Virus record (IMG/VR): IMGVR_UViG_3300047323_000263
Length of the DNA stretch: 64,000 nt
From: an uncultured virus (IMG/VR IMGVR_UViG_3300047323_000263)
Taxonomy: Duplodnaviria; Heunggongvirae; Uroviricota; Caudoviricetes; Schitoviridae
Direction: 5' to 3' (one strand)
Under the pieces are notes generated by a model. The model did not search any database. It was not told where the DNA came from and was given only the letters and a program-made list of their open reading frames with translations. Positions within the stretch are counted from its first letter, which is position 1; the number at the start of each line of letters is the position of its first letter. Below are positions 2,543 through 53,912 of the stretch, one piece after another. A program made the translations under genes and the position numbers.

Positions 2543-3223
2543 ATGCTGACTCAAGAGATGGTGGTGCGGGCTCTCCCGCCGAACCTCAAGGGCGCAGCCA
2601 CGCAGCAGCTGGTCGACATGGTGAACAACGTCGTGACCGATCCGCTGATTGCCGAGCAGGTGCGCAACAACTTCATCTCGTACACCGGGGTGCTGAAAGA
2701 CGGGAAGTTCAAGACCGAGGACTACCTGAACGCGGTGACCTACGTCAGCTACAAGCTGATGGGGGATTCGAACCAGGACGCCTACTTCAAGACCTTCCCC
2801 CAGCGCTACCAGGCGCTCACCGCCAAAGGCGCCACGACCAAGGAGATCTCGGCCTACGTCTCCGCCTTCAACAAGGGCAAGCTCGTCAACCTGATCCTCG
2901 AGCAGAGCCTGGTGCCGACCTGGGTCTTGAACCAGGACATCCACCAGAAGGCGATCAACCGTCTGTCGGATCTGATGATGACGGCCGCCAGCGAGAAGGT
3001 GCAGGCAGATGCCGCGATCGGACTGCTCGCTCACCTCGCCAAGCCGAAGGAAGCAGGGCCGCTCGTGAACTTCAACGTGCCGGAATCCTCGGGCATGGCG
3101 GAGATGAAGGAGCTGCTCGGCAAGATGGCCGCCCAACAGCAGGCACTGATTGCTCAGGGAGTGACGGCCAAAGACATTGCCGCGCAGAAGATCATCGACG
3201 TTGAGGTGAAGGAGCTTCCGTAA
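2543..3223 (+). CDS. N4 gp69-like protein (putative terminase small subunit)
   Basis: Immediately upstream of and coupled (TAATG) to TerL; size and synteny as in N4-like phages. Confidence 0.75.
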   Translation: MLTQEMVVRALPPNLKGAATQQLVDMVNNVVTDPLIAEQVRNNFISYTGVLKDGKFKTEDYLNAVTYVSYKLMGDSNQDAYFKTFPQRYQALTAKGATTKEISAYVSAFNKGKLVNLILEQSLVPTWVLNQDIHQKAINRLSDLMMTAASEKVQADAAIGLLAHLAKPKEAGPLVNFNVPESSGMAEMKELLGKMAAQQQALIAQGVTAKDIAAQKIIDVEVKELP

Positions 3224-4815
3224 TGCCACTGATCAAGCAAGAGTTGGATGAGTGGCTGGATCAGGTCGACTACAAAGAACTGAACTCTCCAAACTACAAG
3301 CCGAGTGTGTTCGCACTCACTTTCATGAACTTCATCAAACTCGTGAACGGCGAGACTGGAGAGAGCCACAAGACACCGCCTGTTCACCTGAAGATGCTGG
3401 ATAAGGTGGTGGAGTCGAACTCTGATTACATTGCAAACCTCTGTTTCCGGGGTGCAGCCAAAACTACTCTGTTCATGGAGTATTTCTGCCTGTTCCTCGG
3501 AATGTTCGGACACTTGCCAGGGTTCGGCAAGGTTGAAGGGATGATCTACGTCTCTGACTCAATGGACAACGGCGTGAAGTCTGCGCGAAAGAACATTGAG
3601 TTCCGATACAACAACAGTGAGTTCCTGCGCGAGTGGATTCCGAAGGCGACCTTCACTGACAACTACATCGAGTTCGAGAACAAGGAAGGCCATCGCCTGG
3701 GCATCAAAATGTTCGGCGCGAAAACTGGCTTGCGCGGTACGAAGATCTTCGGCAAGCGCCCCGTGTTATGCGTGCTCGATGACCTGATCTCGGATGACGA
3801 CTCGAAGTCCAAGGCCGCGATGGATGCGATCAAAGACACCGTTTATAAAGGCGTGAATCACGCCCTCGATCCGACCCGTCGCAAGGTGGTGTTCAATGGC
3901 ACGCCCTTCGCCAAGGAAGACATCCTGATCGAAGCGGTGGAGTCCGGTGCCTGGGACGTGAACGTGTGGCCGGTGTGCGAACGCTTCCCGTGCGAGGAGC
4001 ACGAGTTCGTCGGCGCATGGGAGGATCGCTTCACGTTCAAGTACGTGAAAGAGCAGTACGAGATGGCGGTGAAGACCGGCAAAGTCGCGGCCTTCATGCA
4101 GGAACTGATGCTTCGTATCACGTCCGAGGAAGAGCGCCTCGTGCAGGATGCGGATCTGCGCTGGTACAACCGCAAGAATCTGCTGGCGAACCAGAGCAGT
4201 TTCAACTTCTACATCACCACCGACCTCGCAACCTCAATTAAACAGACCGCTGACTTCTCCGTGATCAGTGTCTGGGCGTACAATTCCAACGGGGACTGGT
4301 TCTGGGTTGACGGCATCATCGAGCGTCAGAAGATCAACAAAACATTCGACGATCTTTTCAGGCTAGTTCAGCAGTACAAACCACAGCAGGTTGGCATCGA
4401 GATCACCGGCCAGCAAGGCGCCTACATCTCATTGCTCCAGACTGCGATGCTGGACCGGAACATCTGGTTCAACTTCGCCAGCTCGGAGAAGAGTGGCGAA
4501 CCTGGTATTCGGCCGATCACCGACAAGCTCTCCCGCTTCAATCTGGTTGTTCCTTGGTTCAAGGCGGGCAAGTTCTACTTCCCCGAAGAATTGAAGCTGT
4601 CGAAGACGCTCGGTATCGCAATGGGTCAGCTCCGGCTGGTCACCTCCAGCGGCATCAAGGGTAAAGACGACTTCATCGACACTGTGTCGATGCTCGGCTA
4701 TCTGAAGCCGTGGAAGCCCTCGGAATCCGCGCCGGCGACACCGACTGAAGTGTCGATCTACGAGGAAGAAGAGCAGCAGGGCGAACCGAGCGGACTGTCC
4801 GCTTATATCGTGTGA
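3223..4815 (+). CDS. terL: Terminase large subunit (N4 gp68-like)
   Basis: Walker A-like RGAAKTT, GLRG..LCVLDD Walker B, GTP coupling motif, nuclease ITTDLA..DFS..KDDFID. Confidence 0.95.
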   Translation: MPLIKQELDEWLDQVDYKELNSPNYKPSVFALTFMNFIKLVNGETGESHKTPPVHLKMLDKVVESNSDYIANLCFRGAAKTTLFMEYFCLFLGMFGHLPGFGKVEGMIYVSDSMDNGVKSARKNIEFRYNNSEFLREWIPKATFTDNYIEFENKEGHRLGIKMFGAKTGLRGTKIFGKRPVLCVLDDLISDDDSKSKAAMDAIKDTVYKGVNHALDPTRRKVVFNGTPFAKEDILIEAVESGAWDVNVWPVCERFPCEEHEFVGAWEDRFTFKYVKEQYEMAVKTGKVAAFMQELMLRITSEEERLVQDADLRWYNRKNLLANQSSFNFYITTDLATSIKQTADFSVISVWAYNSNGDWFWVDGIIERQKINKTFDDLFRLVQQYKPQQVGIEITGQQGAYISLLQTAMLDRNIWFNFASSEKSGEPGIRPITDKLSRFNLVVPWFKAGKFYFPEELKLSKTLGIAMGQLRLVTSSGIKGKDDFIDTVSMLGYLKPWKPSESAPATPTEVSIYEEEEQQGEPSGLSAYIV

Positions 4816-4823
4816 GGTGACTC

Positions 4824-5528
4824 GTGAAAGTATCTGATCTGTTTAGCCTCCTGTCCTACGGCGAATTCAGCAACATCGCCCTCGGACTGGAAGGCGCGGG
4901 TGGCATCGAAGAAGCCTCCAAACCCAAGGTGGTCATCGCCGCCAACGAGGCGCTGCGGCGCATCTACTCGCGCTTTGTCCTGTCGGAAAAGGACGTGGTG
5001 ATCGAGATGGTGAGCCACATCACCAACTACCACCTGCTCAAGAAGTTTGCCGAAAGCGGCTTCGACCCGGAGCAGGTGCGCTATCCCTACATCAAGGATC
5101 TCGGGCGTGAGTCGTTCGAAGAGGACGCCATCAAGATCCTGGCGGTCTATGACAGCCTCGGCTGCCAGATGTCGCTCAATGATTCGGGCCGCTTGAGCTC
5201 GCTGTTCACCCCGCAGCCGACGGTGCTCCAGGTGCCGCGGCCGATTCAGGGTGTCTCGCTCTCGGTGAACTACCAGGCGGCGCACCCTCAGCTCGCACTC
5301 GATGACGAAGAACAGGAGATCGTTCTGCCGCCGTCGTTGCACGGTGCCCTGACTGCGTATGTCGCCTACAAGGTTTTCAGCTCGATGGGAACCGAAGGCA
5401 GCGGAGCCAAGGCACAAGAACACCAGTCGATGTACGAGGCGATCTGCCACGAAGTCGCGGACATGGATCTGGTGAACGCGTCCATCTCAACCACCAACAC
5501 CCGCTTCGAACAGCGGGGATGGGTATAA
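4824..5528 (+). CDS. N4 gp67-like virion protein (head-tail adaptor)
   Basis: LSYGEFSN N-terminus and FEQRGWV C-terminus; position after TerL. Confidence 0.75.
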   Translation: MKVSDLFSLLSYGEFSNIALGLEGAGGIEEASKPKVVIAANEALRRIYSRFVLSEKDVVIEMVSHITNYHLLKKFAESGFDPEQVRYPYIKDLGRESFEEDAIKILAVYDSLGCQMSLNDSGRLSSLFTPQPTVLQVPRPIQGVSLSVNYQAAHPQLALDDEEQEIVLPPSLHGALTAYVAYKVFSSMGTEGSGAKAQEHQSMYEAICHEVADMDLVNASISTTNTRFEQRGWV

Positions 5529-5531
5529 CCA

Positions 5532-6533
5532 ATGAACATGCGCACTGTGAATGACCCGCTCGGCGGGGAAGCCGGCCTTGTCGATAAGTTCCTCGGCAAC
5601 GCCTACGACACGGTTCGCCACGTCGCGCTGAACATCGCCTACGTGAAACACGTCTCCTCGCAGTTGAAGGACGTGTATCTCGTGGCCGAGTCGTTGGCCG
5701 ATGTGGTAGCGGTGTCGGGCAGCTTGACGGACTTGAAGAGTGTGTCTGCGGTTCAGGCGCAGGTGACGGCTGTGGCAGCACAGCTCGATAACCTCACCTC
5801 GATTGCGGGCTCGCTCTCCAAGCTCGTCGACCTGCGCACCAACATGACGAGCCTGCTCGATCTCCAGAGCAACGAGTCGGCGCTGGTCGACCTGCACTCG
5901 CACCAGAACCAGCTGCTCTCGGTGTACGGGTCGCTCGCTTCCGTCTCGGCGGTGAACGACAAGCTCGCCCAGATCGGCACGGTCTTCAACAACCTGGCCG
6001 ACATCGTGTCAGCGGGTGACAACGTGGCTGCGATCGTCGCCGTCAACCAGGCGCTCACCCAGTTGATCTCGGTGCAGGGCCAGCTGACGATGCTCACCAC
6101 CATCAGCGCAAATCTGACGGATATCGTCGCGGTCGGCAACAAGATCGCGGACGTGTCCGCAGTCGCCGCCGATCTGACGAAGCTCGATGCGATCTTCGCG
6201 GACCTGGCCCAGCTCGAGGCGATCTACACCAACCTCGATGCGCTGACGACCAAGCTGACCTCGCTCCAGACGCAGAAGACGCTCACCGGCGTCGCCCCTG
6301 CGAACGGCGCCTCGGTCAATCTTCCCCTTGGCTCGGATGCCCCGGCCGCCAACGTCGCCGCAGTCTCGGTGCGCCTGACGGGCACCGACGGCAGCGTCTA
6401 CTTCCCGGACGGCACCAACCTGATCGTCAAGATCACGGGCACGAACGTGGTGGTGTCGCTCGGCGCTTCGGCCCCGGCTGCGTACACGACTGGCGCGGTG
6501 AAGGCGCTGGTCAGCTACACGCCGTCGGCGTAA
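5532..6533 (+). CDS. Tail appendage/fibre stalk protein with about 20 decad (10-residue) coiled-coil repeats
   Basis: N4-type anchor GLVDKFLGNAYDTVRHVALN, 10-aa periodic core, small beta-rich C-domain. Confidence 0.7.
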   Translation: MNMRTVNDPLGGEAGLVDKFLGNAYDTVRHVALNIAYVKHVSSQLKDVYLVAESLADVVAVSGSLTDLKSVSAVQAQVTAVAAQLDNLTSIAGSLSKLVDLRTNMTSLLDLQSNESALVDLHSHQNQLLSVYGSLASVSAVNDKLAQIGTVFNNLADIVSAGDNVAAIVAVNQALTQLISVQGQLTMLTTISANLTDIVAVGNKIADVSAVAADLTKLDAIFADLAQLEAIYTNLDALTTKLTSLQTQKTLTGVAPANGASVNLPLGSDAPAANVAAVSVRLTGTDGSVYFPDGTNLIVKITGTNVVVSLGASAPAAYTTGAVKALVSYTPSA

Positions 6534-6542
6534 GGAGAGGAG

Positions 6543-8774
6543 ATGAGCGAATACAAAGACATCTCCGCCTTCGAGCTGAGTGAACAGTATTCGAGCCGGG
6601 TGATCCATGACGACCAGTTCCAGGCCCCGTACCGGGGTGACCTGAAGCCGGACGCCATCACCTTCGGCTCGATCGTGACCGGCAGCCAGTCGGCCGACGT
6701 GACGGCAACGCTCACGAACATGGGCTTCCGTCCGCTCCCGGTCGAGGAGATCAAGATCTCGGGCGACTTCCTCTACTCGACGGACTGCCCGGTGGGCGGC
6801 GAGCTGGGTGTAGGCAAGACCTGCTCGATCGTGCTCAACTTCAACCCGTCGTCGGCGGGCCTGAAGCAGGGCGGGCTTTACGTGAACACCGGCGACGCAC
6901 AGGGGGCAGAGTTTGTCGGGCTGCTCGGCTACGGCGTGGCTTCGGGCAAGGGTGTGGCTGGACTCTCGGCCTCTTCCCTTTCCTTTGGCTCAGTCGATGT
7001 GGGCGTGAGCTCCGACACAAAAACCGTCACCTTGGTCAACAACGGCGACGTGGACCTGGCGGTGAAGACGCTCACAGTCTCGGGTGAGTTCTCGCTGACG
7101 AGCTCGCCGGCTGTGCCGACCACGCTTGTCTCCGGTGCGTCGATGGTGATCTCAGTGAAGATGACCCCGATCTCGGCTGGAGCCAAGAGCGGAACAGTCA
7201 GCATCGGCCACGACGGATCCGGTTCGACCAGCATTGCGCTGTCGGGCACGGGTGTCGCTGCTGGCACGACGCCGGTCATGTCGATCTCGGACGCGATCAT
7301 CGAGGCCTACCAGAATCAGGCCACGGTGACGAGCTCGGTCACGGCACTCGCCTTCGACACGACCGAAACCGGTCACAGCTCGGTCGCCAAGTCGGTGCTG
7401 CTCACCAACTCGGGCCTGCTCGATGCGACCATCACCGGTGTGACGCTCTCGAACACCACTGACTTTTCGCTCTCGAGCGACTCGGCAACGGTGGGCGATG
7501 CGGTGCCGGCATCCGGTACGGCGCTGCTGCGGGTGCTGTTCAATCCGAGCGCAGGCGGCGCACGCACGGCGACACTCACGGTGACCACCGATGCGACCTC
7601 CGGTTCGAGCTTCATCATCCCGCTCTCGGGCACGGGTGAAGTGGTGTCGACCGATCTCGCCCGGCTGGCGATCAGCGGCAACCAGTTTGTGCTGGCCTCC
7701 GACCCCTCGAGCACGGTGCGTCTGAAGTCGATCAACTGGTTTGGTGCCGAAGGCACGAACTACACGCCGCACGGTACGTGGCTGCGCCCGTGGAAAGCGA
7801 TCCTCGACGACATCAAGGCGATGGGTTTCAACTGCGTGCGTTTCCCGTTCTCGGGCGACACCTGCACGGTCGGCCGCACACCGCCGACCACCGCCATTGA
7901 CGAAGTGGCCAACCCTGACCTCGTGGGCCTGAACAGCCTCGAGATCCTCGACCTGTACTTCGACTACTGCAACACGATCGGTCTGTACGTGGTGCTCGAC
8001 CACCATCGCCGCACGGCGGGTGACGGTGCCGACGGCTCGCCGGTGGACAGCAGCTACACCGAAGCGCAGTGGCACGCGGACTGGCTGGTGATGGCCAACC
8101 GCTACAAGGCGCACCCGGCTGTGGTGGGCGCTGACCTGCACAACGAACCGCACGACCTCACCTGGTCGCAGTGGGCCACTTACGTGGAGAGCTGCGCGAA
8201 TGCGATCATTGCGGTCGCACCGCTCTGGCTGTACTTCGTTGAAGGCGTCGGCACCAACTCCGACAGCACCTCGACCTGGTGGGGCGGTGCGTTGAAAGAC
8301 GTGGCGACTCGTCCGATCGTGTTGTCGGTGGCGTCGAAGGTGGCCTACTCGCCGCACGAATACGGCCAGTCGACCGGCTCGCAATCGTGGCTGTCCACCG
8401 ACTCGAATGCAGTGTCCGGCTACCCGAACAACCTCTATGCCGTGTGGGATGCGAACTGGGGCTTCATCTACAAGAACAACCTCGCTCCGATCTGGATTGG
8501 AGAGTTCGGGGGCAAGTTCGGTGTGGATGGATCGGGCAACGCCACGCAAGCCAACGGCACGGTGGAAGCACAGTGGGTGACCAACCTCGCCAAGTATCTG
8601 AATGGCGACTTCAACGGTGACGGTACGAGCGACATCGCCACCACCAAGAAGGGTATGAGCTTCGCCTTCTGGGCCTACAACCCGAACTCGTCCGACACGG
8701 GCGGTCTGGTCGAAGATGACTGGACCACGCACCAAGCCGTGAAGGTTTCTCTCCTGGCTCCGCTTCTGACTTAA
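6543..8774 (+). CDS. GH5 endoglucanase (cellulase) with three N-terminal ASH/choice-of-anchor-D Ig-like domains; probable virion depolymerase
   Basis: NWFGAE..PHG, GFNCVRFPFS, LDHH, DLHNEPH (acid/base Glu), WWGG, YSPHEYG, IWIGEFG (nucleophile Glu), FWAYNPNSSDTGG; three L.FG...VTL.N.G...F.P...G.....L....G.G repeats. Confidence 0.93.
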   Translation: MSEYKDISAFELSEQYSSRVIHDDQFQAPYRGDLKPDAITFGSIVTGSQSADVTATLTNMGFRPLPVEEIKISGDFLYSTDCPVGGELGVGKTCSIVLNFNPSSAGLKQGGLYVNTGDAQGAEFVGLLGYGVASGKGVAGLSASSLSFGSVDVGVSSDTKTVTLVNNGDVDLAVKTLTVSGEFSLTSSPAVPTTLVSGASMVISVKMTPISAGAKSGTVSIGHDGSGSTSIALSGTGVAAGTTPVMSISDAIIEAYQNQATVTSSVTALAFDTTETGHSSVAKSVLLTNSGLLDATITGVTLSNTTDFSLSSDSATVGDAVPASGTALLRVLFNPSAGGARTATLTVTTDATSGSSFIIPLSGTGEVVSTDLARLAISGNQFVLASDPSSTVRLKSINWFGAEGTNYTPHGTWLRPWKAILDDIKAMGFNCVRFPFSGDTCTVGRTPPTTAIDEVANPDLVGLNSLEILDLYFDYCNTIGLYVVLDHHRRTAGDGADGSPVDSSYTEAQWHADWLVMANRYKAHPAVVGADLHNEPHDLTWSQWATYVESCANAIIAVAPLWLYFVEGVGTNSDSTSTWWGGALKDVATRPIVLSVASKVAYSPHEYGQSTGSQSWLSTDSNAVSGYPNNLYAVWDANWGFIYKNNLAPIWIGEFGGKFGVDGSGNATQANGTVEAQWVTNLAKYLNGDFNGDGTSDIATTKKGMSFAFWAYNPNSSDTGGLVEDDWTTHQAVKVSLLAPLLT

Positions 8775-8788
8775 AGGACCACTTCAAC

Positions 8789-11200
8789 ATGCGACAAGCA
8801 CGCTTTACCGTTTCGCTGAGTGCAGCGAGCGATAAAACCGTGTCAGTCAACTACGCCACCGTCGATGGGACGGCGGTGGCGGGTACGGACTACACGGCCA
8901 AGACGGGCACCTTGACCTTCGCTCCAGGCGAAGTTTCCAAGGACATTCTGGTGCTGATCCGAGACGAACTCACCGGCTCCGCCGATGAGGCCTTCACGGT
9001 TCATCTCTCGACCCCGACCAACGCCACGCTGGCTACCTCGAGCGCGGGCAGCTGCGCCATTCCGGGAGATCCGGATGCGCTGCCGTCATACCTCGATCGT
9101 TTCCACACGATGTACACGGACATGAAGACGCCGGCCAACGGCTACTTCGGGCCGAAGACCGGCACGTACGCGTACTCGGTGCCGTACCACTGCATCGAGA
9201 CGCTGATCTGCGAAGCGCCGGACTGGGGCCACGAATCGGTGTCGGAAACGGCATCCTTCTGGGTGGGCCTCGAAGCATGGAAGGGTCTGCTCGATGGAGA
9301 CTGGACCGGCTTCAACAAGGCGTGGACGACGATCGACGGCGTCTATGTGCCAAGCACCGCCAACCAGCCGGTGAACGTCTACTTGCCGAGCTCGCCCGCT
9401 GACTACACGCCCGAAGGCGACACGCCCAACGCTTACCCGACACTGGGTGATCCGAACGCGGCCAAGGGTGTGGACGGTCTGTATCAGGAGCTGCTCACCA
9501 CCTACGGCACCAAGGGCGTCTACCTGATGCACTGGATCGTTGACGTTGACGGGGCCTACGGTTTCCACAACGGTGACGGCGCCACGACGAACGTCTACAT
9601 CAACAACTACCAGCGCGGTCTGCAAGAGTCGGCGTGGGAGACGATTCCGCAGCCGGAGTGGGAAGACTTCGACTTCGGCAACGCCTACGGCTACCTGCCG
9701 ATTTTCAGTCAGGGCACGCCCACGTATCCCGCCGCGGCGAACGCTTACGGCAAGCAGTGGCGCTACACATGCGCACCGGATGCTGAGTCCCGTGCCATTC
9801 AGTGGGCGTTCTGGGCCAACAAGTGGGCCACCGCTGGCGGTGCTGCATCGTCGGTTGCGACCTCGATGGGCCGGGCCAAGAAGATGGGTGACTACCTGCG
9901 CTACTGCCTGATGGACAAGTACTTCCGTCAGATCGGAACGAACCGGGCGCTCGGCTCGACCAGCACGAACCCGTACCTCGCCTGCCATTACCTGATCGGC
10001 TGGTATGCGAGCTGGGGCGGCCAGGTGCCGGACACCGACGGCGGCAATTACTGGAGCTTCCGCATTGGATCCAGCGAATGCCACTTCGGCTATCAGGCTC
10101 CGGACGCGGCCTACTACATGGCCACCGGTGGCGGCGGCATCACGCCTCAGTCGGCCTCGGCCGGCGACATCTGGCTGGGCTCGCTCTACCGCCAGCTCGA
10201 GATGATCCGCTGGTTGCAGACGGCCAAGGGTCCGATTGCCGGGGGTGTGTCGAACTCGTGGAATGGTCGCTACGAGACGCCGGGTGATGGACGCGATGCG
10301 TTCACCTTCTACGGCATGCACTACACGTATGCGCCGGTGTGGCACGATCCGCCGTCGAACAACTGGTTTGGTTTCCAGGCATGGGGCCTGGGCCGGGTGG
10401 CTGACCTGTACCTGGAAGTCGCGGACAAGTCGGGCACGCTGCAATCAAACGTGCGCAGCAACTGCGGCGTGATCCTCGATCGCTTCGTGGGCTGGGTGCT
10501 GGCCAACGTTTCAGTCGATGTGACGGCGGGCACCTTCGTCTTGCCCGACACGCTGAACTGGACGAGCCCGACGCAGATCGCCGGCAAGACGACGACCAAG
10601 GCCAACCTCGAAGGCGTCTTCGAGTACATCCCGTCGGCGGCGTGGGATGGCACGCAGGACCAGGCTACGTTCTGGTCGGGCTCCTCGGTGCCGAACCCCA
10701 ACCTCGATTTCACGGTCGTGGCGACGGGCCAGGATCTGGGTGTGGCAAGTTCGCTGTCGCTCTTGATGATCCACTACGCCCAGGCGAAGCGCCTGCTCGG
10801 TGCGTTCGACACGGCGATCCCGAACTCGGCCAAGACCCCGCGTGATGCGTACACGCTCGCTCGCAACCTGATCGACATCATCTGGAAGACCTGCAAGGAT
10901 GACGTGGGCATTGCGCGCACCGAAGGTCGTGGCGACTACAACCGCTACAACCAGCAGCTCTACGTGCCGTCGAACTACAGCGGCACGATGCCTAACGGCG
11001 ACGTGATCAACTCGAGCTCGACGTTCATCTCGATTCGCAGCTGGCAGAAGACGGATCCGGACTGGCACAAGATTCAGGCCTACCTGGACAACCCGTCCGA
11101 TGCGACGATCCCGCAGTTCACGTACCACCGTTTCTGGGCGAATGCTGAGTACGCGATGTGCTGTGGCGCTCTGCACCACTACTTCGCAGACATCAACTAA
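8789..11200 (+). CDS. GH48 cellobiohydrolase/processive cellulase with an N-terminal (truncated) Calx-beta domain
   Basis: VPYHCIETLICEAPDWGHESVSE, MHWIVDVD, NNYQRGLQESAWETIPQP, QWRYTCAPDAE, PVWHDPPSNNWFGFQAW, FTYHRFWA; Calx-beta VSVNYATVDGTAVAGTDY..GTLTFAPGE. Confidence 0.93.
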   Translation: MRQARFTVSLSAASDKTVSVNYATVDGTAVAGTDYTAKTGTLTFAPGEVSKDILVLIRDELTGSADEAFTVHLSTPTNATLATSSAGSCAIPGDPDALPSYLDRFHTMYTDMKTPANGYFGPKTGTYAYSVPYHCIETLICEAPDWGHESVSETASFWVGLEAWKGLLDGDWTGFNKAWTTIDGVYVPSTANQPVNVYLPSSPADYTPEGDTPNAYPTLGDPNAAKGVDGLYQELLTTYGTKGVYLMHWIVDVDGAYGFHNGDGATTNVYINNYQRGLQESAWETIPQPEWEDFDFGNAYGYLPIFSQGTPTYPAAANAYGKQWRYTCAPDAESRAIQWAFWANKWATAGGAASSVATSMGRAKKMGDYLRYCLMDKYFRQIGTNRALGSTSTNPYLACHYLIGWYASWGGQVPDTDGGNYWSFRIGSSECHFGYQAPDAAYYMATGGGGITPQSASAGDIWLGSLYRQLEMIRWLQTAKGPIAGGVSNSWNGRYETPGDGRDAFTFYGMHYTYAPVWHDPPSNNWFGFQAWGLGRVADLYLEVADKSGTLQSNVRSNCGVILDRFVGWVLANVSVDVTAGTFVLPDTLNWTSPTQIAGKTTTKANLEGVFEYIPSAAWDGTQDQATFWSGSSVPNPNLDFTVVATGQDLGVASSLSLLMIHYAQAKRLLGAFDTAIPNSAKTPRDAYTLARNLIDIIWKTCKDDVGIARTEGRGDYNRYNQQLYVPSNYSGTMPNGDVINSSSTFISIRSWQKTDPDWHKIQAYLDNPSDATIPQFTYHRFWANAEYAMCCGALHHYFADIN

Positions 11201-11271
11201 ATCGTCTGAAAAGCAGGGTAGTTCTAGTATCATTGCAAGCAGTTGTAATACCCAGTGAACTTCGGTTCACC

Positions 11272-11314
11272 AAGGGGAGTAGAGATCCTAATCCGATCTC
11301 TGCTCCCCTTTTTT
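11272..11314 (+). terminator. Intrinsic terminator after the cellulase genes
   Basis: GGGGAGTAGAGATC-loop-GATCTCTGCTCCCC followed by TTTTTT. Confidence 0.85.
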
Positions 11315-11333: not shown

Positions 11334-11669
11334 ATGCCGAATGAATCCCTTGAAGTCCAGCTTGCCGTGCTGAGTGAGCGCTTCGCCTTCATTAAGCAGG
11401 AACTGGAAGAGGCGAAGACGGCACGCAAGAGCCAGTACGAGAAGATGGAAGAGCAGTCCGTGATGATGGTGAACATGGACAACCGGATGCGGGCCGTCGA
11501 GATTTCGCTGACGAGCCAGGCACCGACGATCGAAGAGTTCATCACGATCAAGCACAAGATCACCGGAGCCGGGCTCGCTGGTCACTGGGTCTGGAAGATC
11601 GGTGGCGGTGTGCTGATCGTCCTCTGTTATTTCCGCACGCAGATCTACCAATGGCTGACAAAAAGTTAA
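11334..11669 (+). CDS. Lysis-cassette membrane protein (coiled coil + C-terminal TM; holin/antiholin-like)
   Basis: One C-terminal hydrophobic segment; first gene of the lysis cluster. Confidence 0.6.
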   Translation: MPNESLEVQLAVLSERFAFIKQELEEAKTARKSQYEKMEEQSVMMVNMDNRMRAVEISLTSQAPTIEEFITIKHKITGAGLAGHWVWKIGGGVLIVLCYFRTQIYQWLTKS

Positions 11670-25747: not shown

Positions 25748-28700
25748 ATGCCATCTGCGCAAGACCTCCTCAATGAGAAACTTGGACTGTCAACAGGTCC
25801 AGCGGGGCTCTCTCCAACGCCCGCAGACACCGCTTATCAGCAAGGCGTGCAAGCAGCCAACGCACAATTGCGTCCGAATCTGACGCCGGCCGCACCGACT
25901 GCTGCCGACCAGCGCTTCAATGCCGCACAGCAGGGTGCGGATCAGGGGCTGCTCGACGGAATCAAGCGCTTCTTCCCCCAGAAGCCGACCAAGCAGCAGG
26001 ATGTGGCGGCCACGGCGGACGCCAAGCAGGCGTCGCTCGCCCAGACGGCCGATGCCAAGAAGGCCGAGCTCGCCCAGCAGACCGGAGCGCCGGCAGTCAA
26101 CATCACCAACGACCAGATGTACAACGCCGTGCTGGCACGTCGCACGGGTGATGGCCTGAACTCGATGCCGTCACAGGCCGAAGCGGACATGGCGAGCATG
26201 TCGCCGCTCGATCTGATCAACAAGTACGGCTACGACCGTGGCACGCAGCTCATGCAGCAGCGCACCGATGCGCGCAACACCCTCTCGGGTGAATCCACCT
26301 ACGGCGATCGCCGGGTAGTGAGCGGCATTGCCGACTTCGGTAAGGGTGTGGGCCTCGGTGTGGCCAACTCCGTCGGCGGCATGGCAGCACTCGGCGCGGG
26401 CATCCTGAACAAGGACGCCGGCACTCAGATCGCTCGTGGCGTGTCGGATCTCAACGACGCAGTGCAGGGCAGCGAGACGCCGCAGATGCAGGCTTCGCGT
26501 CGACTGAACGCGGCGAAGAATGCACTCGGCTACCGGGACAACCGAGCCCAGTACGCCACGGATCTCGAGCAGTACGGCACGGTCGGTGCGGACATGCGCC
26601 GGGTCGTCAATGACGCAGGCACGGCAGTCGGCAATGCGATCGACGATCCGCTCGCGTTCCAGGACGGCACGGCTCAGGGCTTGGGCTCACTGGTGACCGC
26701 AGGCCCGACCGGCAAGCTGATCGGCGCAGGTGCCAAGGTGGCGCTCGCCGCTGCCCCGGAGCTCGGCATTGCTCCTTCCCTCTTGGCTCGAGCAGCTGCA
26801 TCCAAGACCGGCCAGTACATCGCGCACGAAGGCCCGACGATGGCCGCCATCGGTGCGACTGAGGCGGGCGGCGCCTACCAGCAAAATGCCTCCGATGTGG
26901 TGAAGCAGTCCTTTGAAGATCTGGCTAAGAACAGCCCGATGTTCAAAGAACTGGTCGCCTCGGGCATGAGCAAGGAAGAAGCTCGCACGACGGTAGCGAA
27001 CCGCTCGGGCCTGATCGCTGCCGCTATTCAGGCACCGATGGCTGTGGCGGCCGGCGCAATCGCCTCGAAGTTCGAAGCGAACCCGTTCTCGGTGCCCAAG
27101 CTGCGTGACATCGGCAAGAACGTCCTCAAGGAAGGCGTCGAGGAAACGATTCAGTCTGGCACCGGCCAATGGTCGCAGAACGTCGCCACGCAGCATACGG
27201 CCAACGAGAATCAGGATCTGCTTGAGGGCGTCGGTGAGCAGGCTGGCCTGGGTGGCCTCTACGGCATGTCCTCGGCAGGTGCCACGCAAGGTCCGGGCGC
27301 GGTGTTCTCCCATACGGTGAGCACGGCACTCAAGGCCGGTCAGGCTGTAGCGGGTGCCGTCGGCAAGATGGCTGACAAGGTGCAGGAGCGCAACGACCGC
27401 AACTCGCCGGTGGCTGATCACATCGTCGCGCAAGCGGCGACCGAGTTCGAACATAATGCGGCCACCGCTGGCCAGCAGGCGATCGATTCGGTGCAGGCCT
27501 CCAACCTCTCGGACGAGAAGAAGGCCACGGCCAGCCAGTACATTCAGGATCTGGTCGGCTCCTCGCAGTTCGATCCGAAGGAGATGGAAGGTGCGCCGCA
27601 GCCGCTGATCGATGCAGTGGGCAATGCCACCACGCGGGTGGGCATGCTCCAGAACCTGCTCTCCTACGCACGCAATCAGGAGAACCCGCACGACGTTCGG
27701 GCAATGGCCTACGGTGTCTTCAAGGAAAACCTGGACGCACTGCACCAGAAGGTTGCTGAAGCACCGGTGCAGCTCGAAGGCCTCCCGCACGACGACGCCG
27801 CGGTGACGTTCGCCTCGCAGATCCAGGATCTGGCAGGCAAGTGGCTTGACACGCCCTCAGCGGTTCGCGCCAAGGAATCGATTCAGAAGTCGCTCGACAA
27901 GATCGTGTTGCCGGAGCTCAACGAAGAGTCGATCCAGACCGAAGAAGGTCAGCATGGTTTGCAGACGGCGCTCGCAATGGCCACCATCGATCCGTCGAAG
28001 ATGCCGGCCGCTGCTGTGCAGTCGATCAATGAGCTCGCCGCCAAGGGCAGGCTGCGTCTGACCAGCCAGCAGGAAGCGGGCATTCGCACGGCGATGGGCA
28101 TCCTGGCGGGCCGCGAGAAGTACGTGAGCGAGCTCCAGGCGAATGGCCTGAATGCGCCCAAGGACATCGTGGCGGCGCAGGTGTCAACCGATAAGGGATC
28201 GCCCGAAGGCAAGGATTCGGCGGCAGTACATCTGAACGCGATTCGAACGGCGTATGCGTCGGGTGATCGTGAAGGTGCCAAGACTGCGCTCTCCCACTTC
28301 GGCAAGTTCGCGCAGACGCTCCAGAACAAGGTGAGTGCGGTCAATTCCCAGATTGCGACTCACGGAGCCCAGTCGAATGACAAGAACTCGCTCCACTACG
28401 ACACTGTGAGCCGGGACAAGACCAAGTGGAACAAGTCGAAGCGCCCCTTCGGTGTCACTCCGCAGTCCCCCACCTCCGTCAAGTTCGTGCAGGAAGTTCA
28501 TGCGGAGGCGAAAGCGCTCACTGCTATGCACAATGCTCTGGCTACGGCGTATCCGGAGTTGGGTGTTAGTCATATGGGTCAGGTCGATTTGCATCCGTCG
28601 CTTACCGGTGCTCACCCGCGTGAAGTTGCTCAGGAGTGGAAGCAGGGCAAGCGCACGGTTGACACGTCAAAGGTTGATGGGGAGCCTGCTGCGCAGCCCA

Positions 28701-43961: not shown

Positions 43962-46352
43962 TCAGGCGATCGTCGTCATCGTGCCGAGGGGGGTGAAGAC
44001 CAGGTGCGAGCCCTTCAAAATGTTGCACCACGACCCCGACGCGAGCTTCACGCTCAGATCCGGGCCGGTGGGGCCGACATAGCTGAAGAGGGCGAACCCC
44101 TCGATGGACACAGTGGAATCCTGCGCACCGAGCGGCACGGTCATCGCAACCGAATCCTGCGTGGTCGTCGAGGCGATCACCGTTCCGGCCGAGTTGGCGG
44201 CCTTCGCCGTCAGCCGGAAGCCGTTCGCCCCTTCGTTGAGCACCGTGATGGCGATCGTGCCGGCCGCATCACCCTGCGTGACGAGCAGTCCGGTGACCCG
44301 GTACAGCACGCCGACGAGCGGGATCGTGCCGAGCTTCATCCCGAGCGCCGTGGTGCTCGAGCTGTTGATCGTCTTGTCCGCGCCCTGATAGACGCACGGT
44401 GTTGCGCTGCCGCCACCACTGCCCGCAGGGGGAACTGCCCACGTCGCATCTTCCCGGAGGAATTTGGTCGTGCCGGCCGTCGCACCCGGATCGGGAGCGA
44501 GGCCTGCTGCGTGAGTGGTGCCCGAAGCGCCCATCACCGAGGCGCTGCCGCCACTAGACGCACCGATCTGCGTCCATGCCGACCAGGTGGAAGCACCTGA
44601 CTGGTAGCGGACGTACATCTTGGCGGTGTCGTTTTCGACGGCGATCTGCGTGACGTAGCCATCACCGGCCGGCAGCGTGATGCCACGGCCATAGGTGGAA
44701 GCGGTCGGGATGTTGGTGGTCGTGTTCGAGTAGTTGAAGAACTGACCCTTCACGGCCGTGTTCAGATCGGCCACCGTGGTGGTGTAGGTGGCGGTGAGCC
44801 CGAACTGCTCGAGGTACTCGCGCACCTTCGCCGGCGTCATCAGCACGAGGTTGCTGGTGGCAGCCTGCGCCTGCGCCGTGGTGGCGATCGGCGGCATGGC
44901 CCCAACCGAAGCCCACGCACCAGAGGCCCGGTAAAAGACCACCGTGGAGCTGGTGTTCAGATACCAGTTGCCGTCGGCACCCGTGGCCGAGGTCGGATCG
45001 GACGTGCCCGAGAGCCAGGTGGAACCAGAACCACCCGTGCCAGCCGAGCCGTCTGCACCCTGATACGCCACGCTGTAGATCGTGACGGTCGAAGCATCGG
45101 AGAGCGTGAGCACAGTCCGGGTCCACAGATACTGACCCTTGGTGATGGCCGGAACGGCGGAAGTCCACGTGCTGGTCGGTGCGGTCGTGCCGGAAGCGGC
45201 CGTCTGGTAGGTGACCGCAGAGCTTGCGATTCCCACACCGTTCGAACCATTCGTGCCAGCGGTCCCAGCCGTGCCCGTGTCGCCCTTCGCACCGTCCGCA
45301 CCTTGATAGGCCACCGTGTAGGCGGTCGCCGTCGAGGCGTCGGAAAGCGTGAAGATCGTGCGGGTCCAGAGGAACTGGCCCTTCGTGACAGCAGGAACCG
45401 TGCTGCTCCATGCGCCGGTCGGGGTGACCGTGCCGGACGCCGCGGCTTGATACGTGGTGACGGTCGAGGCAATGCCGACGCCGTTGGAACCGTTCGTTCC
45501 GTTGGTCCCTGCGGTGCCGGTGTCGCCCTTGTCGCCCTTGATAGCGGAGAGCAGAACGAGATCCGCCCAGGTGCCGCCGACCACTCGCCACTGAATGGCG
45601 GTCGCCGTCTTCTGAAGCTCGACAGACTTGCCATCGGCACCCGCAGCACCGGCAGGCGCCTGGAATTCAATCCAGTGCGCCGTGTCGCTCTTCGGGGCGA
45701 TGGTGGACACGTAGTCGGTGTCGCCCGACTGAATCCACATCGAGGTGTTGCCCGCCGCGTTGGCAGCGAACACGTAGTCGGACGGGGAATAGGTGACGCC
45801 CGAGGCCCAGTTGCCCCGGTTGGTCAAGCCAGTGCCGGCGTCGCCCTTATCACCTTTCTCGCCCGGATCGCCTTTCTCTCCCTTGGCTCCGTCAGCGCCA
45901 TCGGCACCGTCCTTACCGTCGACACCATTGGTCCCGTTCGTACCATCACGTCCGTTGGTGCCATTGGTCCCGTTGGTGCCAGCTGCGCCAGCGTCGCCCT
46001 TCGGTCCCTTGAGCGTGGCGAGAAAGTCGGAGAGCGTGCCGCTGTTGCCGGCATTGAGCCAGGTCTGGTAGGCCGAGTCGCCGTCTTCACCCTTGAGGCT
46101 TGCCAAGAAGTCGTCTACTGATCCGACGTTCCCATTGGCAAGCCACAACTGGTAGGCCGATTGGCCTGTGGCACCCGTATTACCGTCCTGTCCGTCCTGC
46201 CCATCTGCACCGTTGGTGCCGTTCGTTCCGTCTTTGCCGTTTGTGCCGGCGTCACCTTTGTCCCCCTTTTCGCCTTGTGGCCCCTCGGGGCCTTGAATCG
46301 GAGTGCCGGTGAAGTCAAGCACAAGGTCATCGAGTGTCGTTACATCACTCAT
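43962..46352 (-). CDS. Collagen-like tail fibre / receptor-binding protein
   Basis: Multiple Gly-X-Y runs, SAYQ.WL..GN.G...DFLA.LKG repeats, two 81-aa repeats with KGQ(F/Y)LWTRT, knob-like QIAVE..MYVR....WSAW. Confidence 0.85.
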   Translation of the reverse strand: MSDVTTLDDLVLDFTGTPIQGPEGPQGEKGDKGDAGTNGKDGTNGTNGADGQDGQDGNTGATGQSAYQLWLANGNVGSVDDFLASLKGEDGDSAYQTWLNAGNSGTLSDFLATLKGPKGDAGAAGTNGTNGTNGRDGTNGTNGVDGKDGADGADGAKGEKGDPGEKGDKGDAGTGLTNRGNWASGVTYSPSDYVFAANAAGNTSMWIQSGDTDYVSTIAPKSDTAHWIEFQAPAGAAGADGKSVELQKTATAIQWRVVGGTWADLVLLSAIKGDKGDTGTAGTNGTNGSNGVGIASTVTTYQAAASGTVTPTGAWSSTVPAVTKGQFLWTRTIFTLSDASTATAYTVAYQGADGAKGDTGTAGTAGTNGSNGVGIASSAVTYQTAASGTTAPTSTWTSAVPAITKGQYLWTRTVLTLSDASTVTIYSVAYQGADGSAGTGGSGSTWLSGTSDPTSATGADGNWYLNTSSTVVFYRASGAWASVGAMPPIATTAQAQAATSNLVLMTPAKVREYLEQFGLTATYTTTVADLNTAVKGQFFNYSNTTTNIPTASTYGRGITLPAGDGYVTQIAVENDTAKMYVRYQSGASTWSAWTQIGASSGGSASVMGASGTTHAAGLAPDPGATAGTTKFLREDATWAVPPAGSGGGSATPCVYQGADKTINSSSTTALGMKLGTIPLVGVLYRVTGLLVTQGDAAGTIAITVLNEGANGFRLTAKAANSAGTVIASTTTQDSVAMTVPLGAQDSTVSIEGFALFSYVGPTGPDLSVKLASGSWCNILKGSHLVFTPLGTMTTIA

Positions 46353-53909: not shown

Positions 53910-53912
53910 TGT

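Follow-up and report, generated by a model that had tools for sequence, protein, structure and literature searches.

The closest described system is that of Erwinia phage vB_EamP-S6 (Waedenswilvirus, Schitoviridae), for which the available text of PMC9544554 and PMC13101476 reports that cellulose (bcs) is needed for infection; a sequence-only reading of the DNA studied here had drawn this link between S6 and bacterial cellulose correctly. In its available part, the commentary PMC9544554 describes S6 gp095 as a GH5 protein that degrades a CMC-type substrate and gp094, printed in 2022 with the architecture and locus of the GH48 protein found here, as a predicted Calx-beta plus GH48 protein. The same text places the catalytic residues at E155 and D331 of gp094 and at E570 and E689 of gp095, and it finds gp094 homologues "predominantly" in Streptomyces and Bacillus (PMC9544554). 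For phage GH48, this commentary was the sole relevant match among the literature matches listed.

Other N4-like phages have a branched adsorption apparatus (G7C gp63.1/gp66, Possum gp66/gp67 and the polymorphic receptor-binding region of N4), in which a virion-proximal adaptor and enzyme-bearing appendages act on a host surface glycan (available text of PMC9569702 and PMC9544554). Its genes occupy the same genomic slot as those described here; however, the G7C and Possum enzymes are SGNH deacetylases acting on O-antigen or exopolysaccharide, whereas the slot examined here holds a pair of glycoside hydrolases, of which one belongs to a processive family.

We analysed a 64,000-nucleotide stretch of DNA from an uncultured virus (IMG/VR IMGVR_UViG_3300047323_000263), hereafter the window, and found a gene for a GH5 protein followed by one for a GH48 protein. 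We consider it highly probable that these two genes are the counterparts of S6 gp095 and gp094, forming an N4-like tail-appendage module that uses host-secreted cellulose (bcs-type) as first receptor. By its hallmark genes, the window phage is N4-like (Schitoviridae): it has a 3687-aa ORF for the virion RNA polymerase (vRNAP; 25748-36811; phrog_2206, 2704 bits), and N4-type portal, capsid, terminase and replication genes are present. The portal is 62-66% identical to those of named schitoviruses (65.6% for phiEaP8). With 12.3 kb of structural genes as the megablast query, named phages match across the capsid gene only, which is about 10% of the query. Hence, the phage represents at least a new genus.

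Sequencing runs X2-X4, which are labelled rhizosphere metagenome, contain 73-76% of the sampled words of the stretch, and runs X8-X12 contain small shares only; run X1, which may be the source of the stretch, was left out of this habitat count. No RNA run was found to contain the stretch among the sequencing runs listed. The host is probably a plant-associated rhizosphere proteobacterium, which we assume to produce cellulose.

The genes run in the order terL (3223-4815), SU10-adaptor-like (4824-5528), appendage-like (5532-6533), GH5 (6543-8774), GH48 (8789-11200), holin/endolysin/spanin and portal. Together with the vRNAP, this order agrees with the initial placement of both enzymes where N4-like genomes have their receptor-binding genes, before lysis. 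S6 shares the gene order from terL to portal (gp098 to gp088), the domain architectures, the aligned catalytic residues and a relative (gp066) of the collagen-like fibre described below. It differs in that its proteins are 58-59% (GH48) and 39-42% (GH5 protein) identical to those of the window, its GH5 protein has two choice-of-anchor D stretches (available text of PMC9544554) rather than three, and its locus is 52% GC rather than about 60%. The nearest cultured relatives are Erwinia phages phiEaP8, Fifi051, Kuerle, Fifi067, Fifi287 and Fifi450, with 72% identity for GH48 and 52-54% for the GH5 protein. This group has the same locus, including the phrog_5211 gene after GH48, but that of phiEaP8 is 47% GC.

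Upstream of the enzymes, a 234-aa gp67-like virion structural or adaptor protein is encoded at 4824..5528 (plus strand; phrog_2125 'virion structural protein', E 1.2e-81; Pfam SU10_adaptor, E 1.2e-6), and its position next to terL is conserved in S6, phiEaP8 and 5 uncultivated N4-like loci. The 333-aa appendage-like protein follows at 5532..6533 (plus strand; phrog_29955 'appendage', E 6.4e-19, residues 15-181). We found that it matches the 'putative tail-spike protein' of phiEaP8 and a protein of locus L093 over its full length at 38-40% identity, and that the match to S6 and L091 is confined to the first ~50-70 residues. It probably serves as the stalk of the appendage or as its virion-proximal adaptor.

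The GH5 protein (P0001, 743 aa; 6543-8774, plus strand) consists of three Ig-like (choice-of-anchor D) domains and a GH5 endoglucanase domain. In the N-terminal part (6543..7649), Pfam recognises HYDIN-like Ig, ASH and Cep192_D4 stretches and NCBIfam recognises choice_anch_D three times (E 1.9e-33). Residues 2-238 are 46-47% identical to N-termini in the Erwinia N4-like phages Frozen, Ea9-2, Rexella and Gutmeister, whose proteins bear different heads, and the myophage Hena1 has another sequence in its place. Judged by these alignments, residues 2-238 appear to be a lineage-specific anchor. The catalytic domain (7650..8774, plus strand) matches the (beta/alpha)8 domain profile PF00150 over residues 396-715 (E 4.7e-38). 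Among solved structures, it is closest to CelE2 (8fc0, E 1.3e-83) and to Acidothermus E1 (1ece, E 3.9e-72), and the protein matches phrog_18474 'hydrolase' (E 2.6e-180). The subfamily is presumably GH5_1. We found the acid/base E535 in the motif LHNEPHD and the nucleophile E654 in WIGEFGG; both glutamates are invariant in 23/23 aligned relatives and are also conserved in the S6 and phiEaP8 GH5 proteins. The endoglucanase with two catalytic glutamates that had been read from the letters is thus borne out.

The GH48 protein (P0002, 803 aa; 8789-11200, plus strand) joins a Calx-beta domain to a full GH48 domain. The E-values of the GH5 and GH48 matches on these open frames of 743 and 803 aa are far beyond chance. 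The GH48 catalytic domain (9074..11200, plus strand; PF02011, E 3.5e-209) scores 696.8 bits against a profile cut-off of 25 and matches 14/14 GH48 PDB sequences (best 6d5d, E 4.5e-159), confirming the full-length domain claimed at first sight. In the alignment, E153 falls on the position where the Cel48F PDB sequences 1f9o and 1f9d differ (E/Q), and D331 on position 230 of the Cel48F chain. In Cel48F, we take Glu55 to be the proton donor and Asp230 the putative base. For P0002, the proton donor is accordingly assigned to E153 and the putative base to D331, with E142 as a further catalytic residue; an acid/base assignment of the GH48 positions is also given in the available text of the S6 commentary (PMC9544554).

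Cellular GH48 enzymes (Cel48F, CelS and those of Caldicellulosiruptor and Streptomyces) resemble P0002 in their full-length catalytic domain (38-44% identity), their conserved donor and base and their endoglucanase partner. In contrast to them, P0002 lacks a signal peptide, a dockerin and any cellulose-binding module and has an N-terminal Calx-beta domain instead. Read from the translations, neither the P0001 nor the P0002 N-terminus has a hydrophobic signal-like core, as the sequence-only reading had stated, and in P0002 the Calx-beta domain starts at once.

This Calx-beta domain (8789..9073, plus strand; residues 4-79, PF03160, E 1.1e-15) also heads other tail proteins. The same N-terminal domain is found 3' of GH5 genes on fibre-domain ORFs in L086, L090 and L097, as well as on the PEp14 EPS depolymerase and PEp14_00019, and it is unchanged between N4-like and rV5-like phages. 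We propose that in P0002 it is a docking or spacer module. Elsewhere, Calx-beta is C-terminal (P0157) or present in tandem copies (L090, L092 and L098), which fits a spacer or sugar/Ca-binding role as well as docking.

The GH5 and GH48 genes have phage-like codons, as had been noted, with RSCU correlations of r 0.95 and 0.97 to the other structural genes of the phage and a GC3 of 0.83. Four long antisense ORFs of the region (7152-8735, 9086-10444, 10511-11233 and 6009-6608) contain no Pfam family (0/4), and we treated them as high-GC artefacts. A terminator-like hairpin (11272..11310, plus strand) with a 16-bp stem, 8 G-C pairs and a following T-run lies 72 nt past the GH48 stop and likely marks the end of the terL-to-GH48 transcription unit. 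Since shuffled sequence yields as many terminator-like sites as the region itself (mean of 7.4 versus 6 found), the argument for this hairpin is entirely its unusual stem length. The count from a sigma-70 promoter scan of the region was likewise not above chance (1 site versus 1.8 expected).

We infer that both proteins are located on the virion, from the locus and from domain logic: the genes lie in tail-fibre clusters, an appendage N-terminus is shared and signal peptides are absent, which argues for a structural role. On three unrelated backbones, namely those of N4-like phages, Vequintavirinae Hena1 and Pavtokvirus PEp14, the genes belong to the tail-fibre cluster. Alternatively, the proteins could be soluble enzymes that are made late, stay off the particle and are freed at lysis, where they would dissolve cellulose biofilm for progeny spread. 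That the two genes close the late transcription unit directly 5' of holin, endolysin and spanin agrees with such a role, as does the Pfam finding that no trimerisation domain or beta-helix tailspike domain is obvious in either protein; in addition, the literature matches listed include no virion proteomics and, for the module proteins of any member, no virion mass spectrometry or structure. We nevertheless think soluble enzymes unlikely, since the N-terminal 238 residues of the GH5 protein are common to differently headed N4-like appendage proteins, the Hena1 and PEp14 copies lie inside tail-fibre clusters, far from lysis genes, and S6 requires cellulose for infection and not just for spread (available text of PMC9544554 and PMC13101476).

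A phage-borne GH48 had been called very unusual. As a claim of novelty this was overstated, since we found a full-length GH48 in 17/50,697 phage records, S6 gp094 was already in print and Calx-beta plus GH48 proteins form a large metagenomic phage-type clade of more than 100 clusters. This clade spans at least three virion architectures, plus proviruses. A scan of viral contigs with a single protein returned 2 GH48 loci and an alignment-based scan returned 15. Whole-library HMMER with full P0002 gave mostly giant Calx-beta repeat proteins among the best 150, with ~10 usable GH48 representatives. The nearest record, G001, has no GH48 match but is a fragment of 19.6 kb only and is uninformative.

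We found GH5 upstream of GH48 in 15/15 IMG/VR loci, adjacent in 11 and with one Calx-beta ORF between in 4, on N4-like, rV5-like and provirus backbones. Natural fusions occur in both orders (GH5-GH48-Ig in P0049 and GH48-GH5-Calx in P0157). Gene order and fusions together show a tight coupling of GH5 with GH48.

The phylogeny does not place the origin of the phage enzyme in the cellulolytic Clostridia or Actinobacteria, where a traceable donor had been expected. One 100*-supported branch of length 0.76 parts the phage-type clade from all sampled cellular GH48s, none of which nests with or inside it; hence, no recent donor is visible. The cellular sample comprised the 79 best loci of one scan plus 8 database proteins, with Streptomyces thinned to 1 in 6 and a single stop-containing locus removed; the tree was built without eukaryotic GH48s and without gammaproteobacterial ones such as 4fus. 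The clade also has specific insertions, at P0002 residues 548-557, about 597-631 and 673-680.

Within the phage-type clade, D331 is present in 114/114 members, E142 in 112/114 and E153 in 110/114. At the level of sequence, this conservation indicates that catalysis is under selection across the clade. The proton-donor glutamate is lost in 2/114 members (R in P0034, A in P0050), so catalysis is not obligatory everywhere in the clade. These two members would suit a receptor dominated by binding, in which GH48, and perhaps GH5, mainly grips cellulose like a lectin, hydrolysis is slow or dispensable and there is no directional travel; GH48 enzymes are, moreover, slow on their own. Such a receptor seems to us very unlikely given the conserved GH48 residues and the invariant GH5 glutamates, which point to selection on catalysis, and given that S6 gp095 is reported to be active (available text of PMC9544554).

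The substrate could also be something other than plain cellulose. Extra SGNH/GDSL esterase domains occur in some relatives, on the GH48 side in P0102 and on the GH5 side in P0290, P0303 and P0338, and hint at acetylated substrates. Some insect GH48s are reported to be chitinases, and the rhizosphere is the habitat of the phage. The pair could thus act on another beta-linked glycan of the host, such as a chitin-like polymer, a mixed-linkage glucan or cellulose that is modified or acetylated. Equally conceivable is a role as auxiliary metabolic genes in the degradation of plant cellulose for the host. We give these substrates very little chance, because both domains have cellulases as their nearest characterised relatives and S6 genetics implicate the bcs operon (available text of PMC9544554 and PMC13101476). 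A nutritional role is further opposed by the tail-fibre-cluster location and by the absence of secretion signals, cellulose-binding modules and dockerins.

Elsewhere in the window, a collagen-like fibre with a two-part C-terminal head (P0389, 796 aa; 43962..46352, minus strand) matches Pfam Collagen (PF01391, E 7.7e-15) and tail-fibre PHROGs. Its C-terminal 344 aa have a match in 19/50,697 phage records, namely the 17 GH48 carriers and two BcepNazgul records in which the match is partial; a fibre of this type is therefore present in 17/17 GH48 phage records. In the uncultivated GH48 records, the fibre head was found in 3/10, where the ORF that encodes it lies between those for GH5 and GH48. 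We rejected a universal role of this head as third component, since it is absent from the near-complete GH48 records G002 and G006. P0389 is a candidate third component of a cellulose-adsorption kit.

In the predicted fold of P0389, the knob gives Z 9-10.6 (R2 pyocin fibre, Z 10.6; phi812 baseplate chain 9euf_5, Z 10.4, rmsd 2.7 over 89 residues), and the TNF/C1q-like jelly-roll head, whose residues 196-340 are modelled at pLDDT >90, gives Z 6.9-9 (4-1BBL, C1q-type domains, BclA and ExsFA at 6.9-8.4), values for the head that fall in a range common for the tool, with Foldseek TM-scores of 0.35-0.45 per target. P0389 would thus resemble collagen fibres with C1q/TNF heads (BclA, ExsFA and C1q) and pyocin or phage knobs in its series of collagen repeats, knob and jelly-roll end, but it has no sequence similarity to them.

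For the preferred reading, a tail-appendage module with cellulose as first receptor, we propose the following mechanism. The short appendage-like protein, encoded just upstream, would link the virion to the lineage-specific Ig-like region at the N-terminus of the GH5 protein, and the GH48 protein would be attached by its Calx-beta N-terminus. Because the two enzymes are transferred together between phage families, this domain probably docks on the GH5 protein. GH5 would nick a cellulose chain and so create a new reducing end on the stub tethered to the cell; GH48, as a reducing-end-directed processive enzyme, could then thread that end, release cellobiose and move toward the non-reducing, cell-proximal end, carrying the particle to the outer-membrane exit pore. 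There, a further contact may trigger ejection of the DNA and the vRNAP; a candidate for making it is the collagen-like fibre, through its TNF/C1q-like head. The GH48 enzyme CfCel48A is reported to move from the reducing to the non-reducing end (available text of PMC7443863), and bacterial cellulose is reported to leave the cell reducing end first and to grow at the non-reducing end on BcsA (available text of PMC8892547). By analogy, these published polarities combine so that travel of GH48 toward the cell would fit.

A stronger version of this reading is possible but doubtful in our view: GH5, Calx-beta plus GH48 and the fibre head would constitute a portable kit that is moved as a set and acts as a winch to the BcsC pore, where the fibre head would make the last contact. 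Such a kit would be spread across N4-like podophages, rV5-like myophages and temperate phages, with hosts of 41-67% GC.

A GH5 plus GH48 tail module has already been described for S6, and the window module is a new, distant member. What is new here is a rhizosphere relative of ~60% GC, the coupling of GH5 and GH48, the natural fusions, the co-occurrence of the fibre and the fit of the polarities. The module is far wider than the literature examined suggests, in view of the number of phage-type clusters and the emphasis on Streptomyces and Bacillus in the available part of the commentary. GH5/GH48 coupling and the fibre head in many genomes provide concrete partner proteins, and the published chain polarities make the idea of travel toward the cell testable with existing cultured phages. 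If the portable winch were real, phages of plant-associated Proteobacteria would widely use secreted cellulose as their primary receptor, with a processive glycosidase as the motor of virus delivery. If cellulose is commonly a phage receptor in rhizosphere bacteria, this would bear on biofilm ecology and on the phage biocontrol of plant pathogens.

The window encodes a GH5 protein with Pfam, NCBIfam and PDB matches (P0001, 743 aa; 6543-8774, plus strand) and, after a gap of 14 nt on the same strand, a Calx-beta and GH48 protein with Pfam and PDB matches (P0002, 803 aa; 8789-11200, plus strand), each preceded by a Shine-Dalgarno-like sequence. In P0001, three Ig-like domains (Pfam HYDIN/ASH/Cep192-type) precede the GH5 domain (PF00150, residues 396-715, E 4.7e-38), and NCBIfam finds choice-of-anchor D on three stretches (E 1.9e-33). 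Among solved structures, its best matches are to endoglucanases, namely CelE2 (8fc0, E 1.3e-83), E1 of Acidothermus (E 3.9e-72) and the major endoglucanase of Xanthomonas (4tuf, E 4.4e-59). In P0002, an N-terminal Calx-beta domain (Pfam, residues 4-79, E 1.1e-15) accompanies a complete GH48 domain (Pfam, E 3.5e-209), and all 14 solved GH48 sequences match the protein (best 6d5d, E 4.5e-159). No Pfam family was found in four long antisense ORFs of the region.

We found that E535 (HNEP motif) and E654 (GEFG motif) of P0001 are unchanged in Erwinia phage vB_EamP-S6 (S6) and in phiEaP8, the nearest cultured relative, and are invariant in 23/23 aligned relatives. In P0002, E153 aligns with Cel48F chain position 55, the sole E to Q difference between two PDB sequences, and D331 aligns with the Cel48F Asp at position 230; a 2022 commentary on S6 assigns the roles of proton donor and base in its GH48 protein, gp094, to E155 and D331 (PMC9544554). 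All 114 phage-type clade members have D331, 112 have E142 and 110 have E153, the four exceptions at E153 being P0034 (R), P0050 (A) and two truncated proteins. Hence, the GH5 and GH48 pair of the sequence-only reading is confirmed, with both GH5 catalytic glutamates and a full-length GH48 domain.

The virus is N4-like. Its match to the virion RNA polymerase family is an ORF of 3687 aa (2704 bits), and its structural genes, among them portal, capsid and terminase, are of the N4 type, as are the replication genes on the minus-strand half (those for primase, DNA polymerase, helicase, SSB and rIIA/B). On that strand, 52170-56456 holds rIIB-like (579 aa) and rIIA-like (847 aa) genes, thymidylate synthase and dCTP deaminase, an early/middle region of ordinary content among N4-like phages. 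Locally, terL is followed by genes for an SU10-adaptor-like virion protein and an appendage-like protein, by GH5 and GH48, by a small conserved ORF and then by holin, endolysin, spanin and portal, in agreement with the proposed N4-like receptor-binding slot before the lysis genes. A hairpin (16-bp stem plus T-run) lies 72 nt past the GH48 stop. The codons are phage-like, as claimed: both genes agree with the rest of the structural set in GC3 and in relative codon usage (r 0.95 and 0.97), so both are long-resident. No tRNAs were found in the window.

Two neighbouring ORFs deserve comment. The appendage-like ORF (5532-6533, plus strand) has a type III effector match in NCBIfam far below threshold (31 bits; cut-off 1243) and a weak Pfam P10 match, both probably reflecting repeat or coiled-coil composition only. 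The small ORF (11334-11669, plus strand; phrog_5211) also follows GH48 in phiEaP8 and in IMG/VR locus L093 and was undetected in S6; its phiEaP8 counterpart is annotated as a tape-measure protein, which is implausible at 111 aa.

Portal identity to named phages is at most 65.6% (phiEaP8 closest), and when 12.3 kb of the structural region was compared with named phages by megablast, only the capsid gene matched. Hence, this uncultivated schitovirus represents a new genus or a higher rank. In the homology search, the window's own protein stands on a contig of ~75.8 kb. The stretch turns up again in sequencing runs with the label rhizosphere metagenome, with 73-76% of its sampled words in three runs (X2-X4) and 35-40% in three others (X5-X7); since all are dated 2023, they may stem from one campaign, and a further run, X1, may be the source.

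The sequence-only interpretation largely holds, but a pair of this kind has already been published for S6. The S6 locus shares the gene order (gp098, which corresponds to terL, gp097, gp096, gp095, gp094, small ORFs, endolysin, portal), gp095 and gp094 are both annotated as glycoside hydrolases, and phiEaP8 is arranged likewise. The commentary gives gp094 as a predicted Calx-beta and GH48 protein, places gp094/gp095 in a polymorphic region equivalent to the receptor-binding genes of N4 and names cellulose as the first receptor of S6 (PMC9544554). The cellulose dependence of S6 was confirmed in 2026 with a bcs-deletion control (PMC13101476), and in a 2026 Klebsiella screen a subset of one phage family required five cellulose-synthesis genes (PMC13412088). 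Erwinia myophage M7 (Kolesnikvirus) is also stated to be cellulose dependent (PMC13101476), and it is absent from the phage-database GH48 matches and from the GH5 matches listed (40 of 52). Hence, cellulose-dependent infection may not always need these enzymes.

Phage-borne GH48 had been called very unusual; it is rare among cultured phages, yet not new. Using tblastn, we found full-length GH48 in 17 of 50,697 phage records, several phages being present as GenBank and RefSeq copies. The carriers are N4-like Erwinia phages (phiEaP8, Fifi051, Fifi287, Fifi067, Kuerle, Fifi450, Pastis, Fifi011 and S6) and myophages of ~147 kb (pEp_SNUABM_01, pEa_SNUABM_55, pEa_SNUABM_56 and Hena1). When 8000 candidates from a collection of 5.8 billion proteins were scored, at least 1489 reached E <= 1e-20. 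Among the best 113 of these 1489 (43-100% identity), 107 combine GH48 with Calx-beta, 22 lie on contigs of 60-78 kb and five on contigs >150 kb, with names including Rhodoblastus acidophilus and Novosphingobium sp.; the names of these five are alphaproteobacterial or pseudomonadotal. CBM2 and GH48 proteins of the Streptomyces type start at 41-44% identity.

An alignment-based scan of IMG/VR gave 15 GH48 loci (four from cultured genomes, two contigs identical over the locus), and each of the 15 is preceded on its own strand by a GH5 domain. The GH5 ORF adjoins GH48 in 11, and one Calx-beta ORF intervenes in the other four. GC of these loci runs from 41.5% to 67.3%, and they stand on N4-like backbones (with terL, adaptor and portal), on rV5-like myophage backbones or on records of 53-63 kb. 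Natural fusions occur as GH5-GH48-Ig without Calx-beta (P0049) and as GH48-GH5-Calx-beta (P0157). In Hena1 the pair sits inside the tail-fibre cluster, with a tail fibre and a gene for fibre assembly as neighbours, and in PEp14 the GH5 gene adjoins an EPS-depolymerase tailspike. Three of these last records (G002, G004 and G005, with loci L084, L086 and L090; 55-63 kb, 61-66% GC) are classed by IMG/VR as provirus, and five clade members lie on the contigs >150 kb; hence, temperate phages also carry the cassette. Some GH48 or GH5 relatives have an extra GDSL/SGNH esterase domain (P0102, P0290, P0303, P0338) or an alginate-lyase-type domain (PF08787; P0314, P0321), a hint at acetylated or mixed matrices as the targets of some phages.

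Species-representative genomes, when scanned for GH48, yielded 79 cellular loci, all at most 44% identical (Streptomyces, other Actinomycetota, Ktedonobacteria, Myxococcota, Bacillota). In FastTree (99 rows), a branch with support 100 parts 50 phage-type from 49 cellular rows, and IQ-TREE (47 rows, LG+C20 PMSF, quick search) gives the same split (SH-aLRT 100, branch length 0.76); rows omitted were Streptomyces loci (thinned 1 in 6), a single locus interrupted by a stop and two thirds of the phage-type proteins. The phage-type clade has insertions of its own at P0002 residues 548-557, ~597-631 and 673-680. Within the limits of unrooted trees and of a sampling that did not extend to eukaryotic and gammaproteobacterial GH48s, no donor lineage comes into view, and the phage clade is old and diversified. 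P0002 pairs with metagenomic P0004 (75% identity in the homology search, 78% over tree columns) and next with phiEaP8/Kuerle. Erwinia myophage GH48 groups with S6 (support 87, 47-row IQ-TREE), which points to exchange between phage families. Unlike GH48, the GH5 domain has its nearest cellular relatives in GH5 proteins of Rhizobium and Azotobacter (56-59% identity across roughly half the query).

P0001 residues 2-238 are 46-47% identical to the N-termini of otherwise-headed proteins of the Erwinia N4-like phages Frozen, Ea9-2, Rexella and Gutmeister, and in the myophages this N-terminus is replaced, the alignment covering only P0001 residues 245-743. Such a swap would be typical of an exchangeable head joined to a virion anchor that is specific to the lineage. 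The GH48 protein has the same Calx-beta N-terminus in every lineage, and Calx-beta heads further tail proteins behind the GH5 gene, namely the EPS depolymerase of PEp14, the PEp14 protein PEp14_00019 and the ORFs that intervene in loci L084, L086, L090 and L097. This constancy suggests that Calx-beta may plug interchangeable heads onto a co-travelling partner, most simply the GH5 protein. Equally possibly, Calx-beta is a spacer or sugar-binding module, as its C-terminal position in P0157 and its duplication in some loci would allow.

A collagen-like tail fibre (796 aa; 43962-46352, minus strand; collagen repeats and tail-fibre PHROG matches) is a possible third component. Its gene lies among replication genes, between exonuclease and DNA polymerase, where GC is raised (0.657). 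Of the 50,697 phage records, 19 match its C-terminal 344 residues: the 17 that carry GH48 and no others, apart from two copies of BcepNazgul covering 26% of the query; the 17 represent about five lineages rather than 17 independent observations. Neither the GH48-less Erwinia N4-like phages nor the GH5-only PEp14, Pavtok, Stean, SopranoGao, LASTA, SJM3, ZX1, Parlo and Skulduggery match. In Hena1 the domain belongs to a 1297-aa fibre 3 kb downstream of GH48. Among uncultivated GH48 records, it occurs in three of ten, in an ORF between GH5 and GH48 behind an N-terminal Calx-beta, and in two of the four that are at least 90% complete, being absent from G002 and G006. Hence, the link with GH48 is frequent, not universal. 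In the AlphaFold model (mean pLDDT 78.5; >90 for residues 200-340), a knob resembles the R2 pyocin fibre (Z 10.6) and phi812 baseplate chain 9euf_5 (Z 10.4); a second part resembles a TNF/C1q-like jelly-roll (Z 6.9-9.0, a commonly met range), with weak Foldseek matches.

The polarity of cellulose suggests how the pair might act. By high-speed AFM, the GH48 enzyme CfCel48A moves from the reducing to the non-reducing end (PMC7443863), and bacterial cellulose exits the cell reducing end first, elongating at the non-reducing end on BcsA (PMC8892547). Hence, after a GH5 cut in a tethered chain, the piece still attached to the cell would carry a new reducing end, and a virion-bound GH48 threading that end would travel towards the cell. 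Among the papers listed in literature searches on phage GH48 we did not find this argument, and the word "reducing" is absent from the S6 commentary (PMC9544554); the argument may stand in the primary paper (Knecht et al. 2022).

The virion location, GH48 activity and cellulose substrate of the window proteins are predictions from sequence. A large monophyletic phage GH48 clade, its obligatory pairing with GH5, the natural fusions, the shared Calx-beta N-terminus, the co-travelling fibre head and the matching chain polarity are new leads rather than established results. To the phages with this type of pair, the window contributes a distant member from the rhizosphere that is probably not an Erwinia phage.
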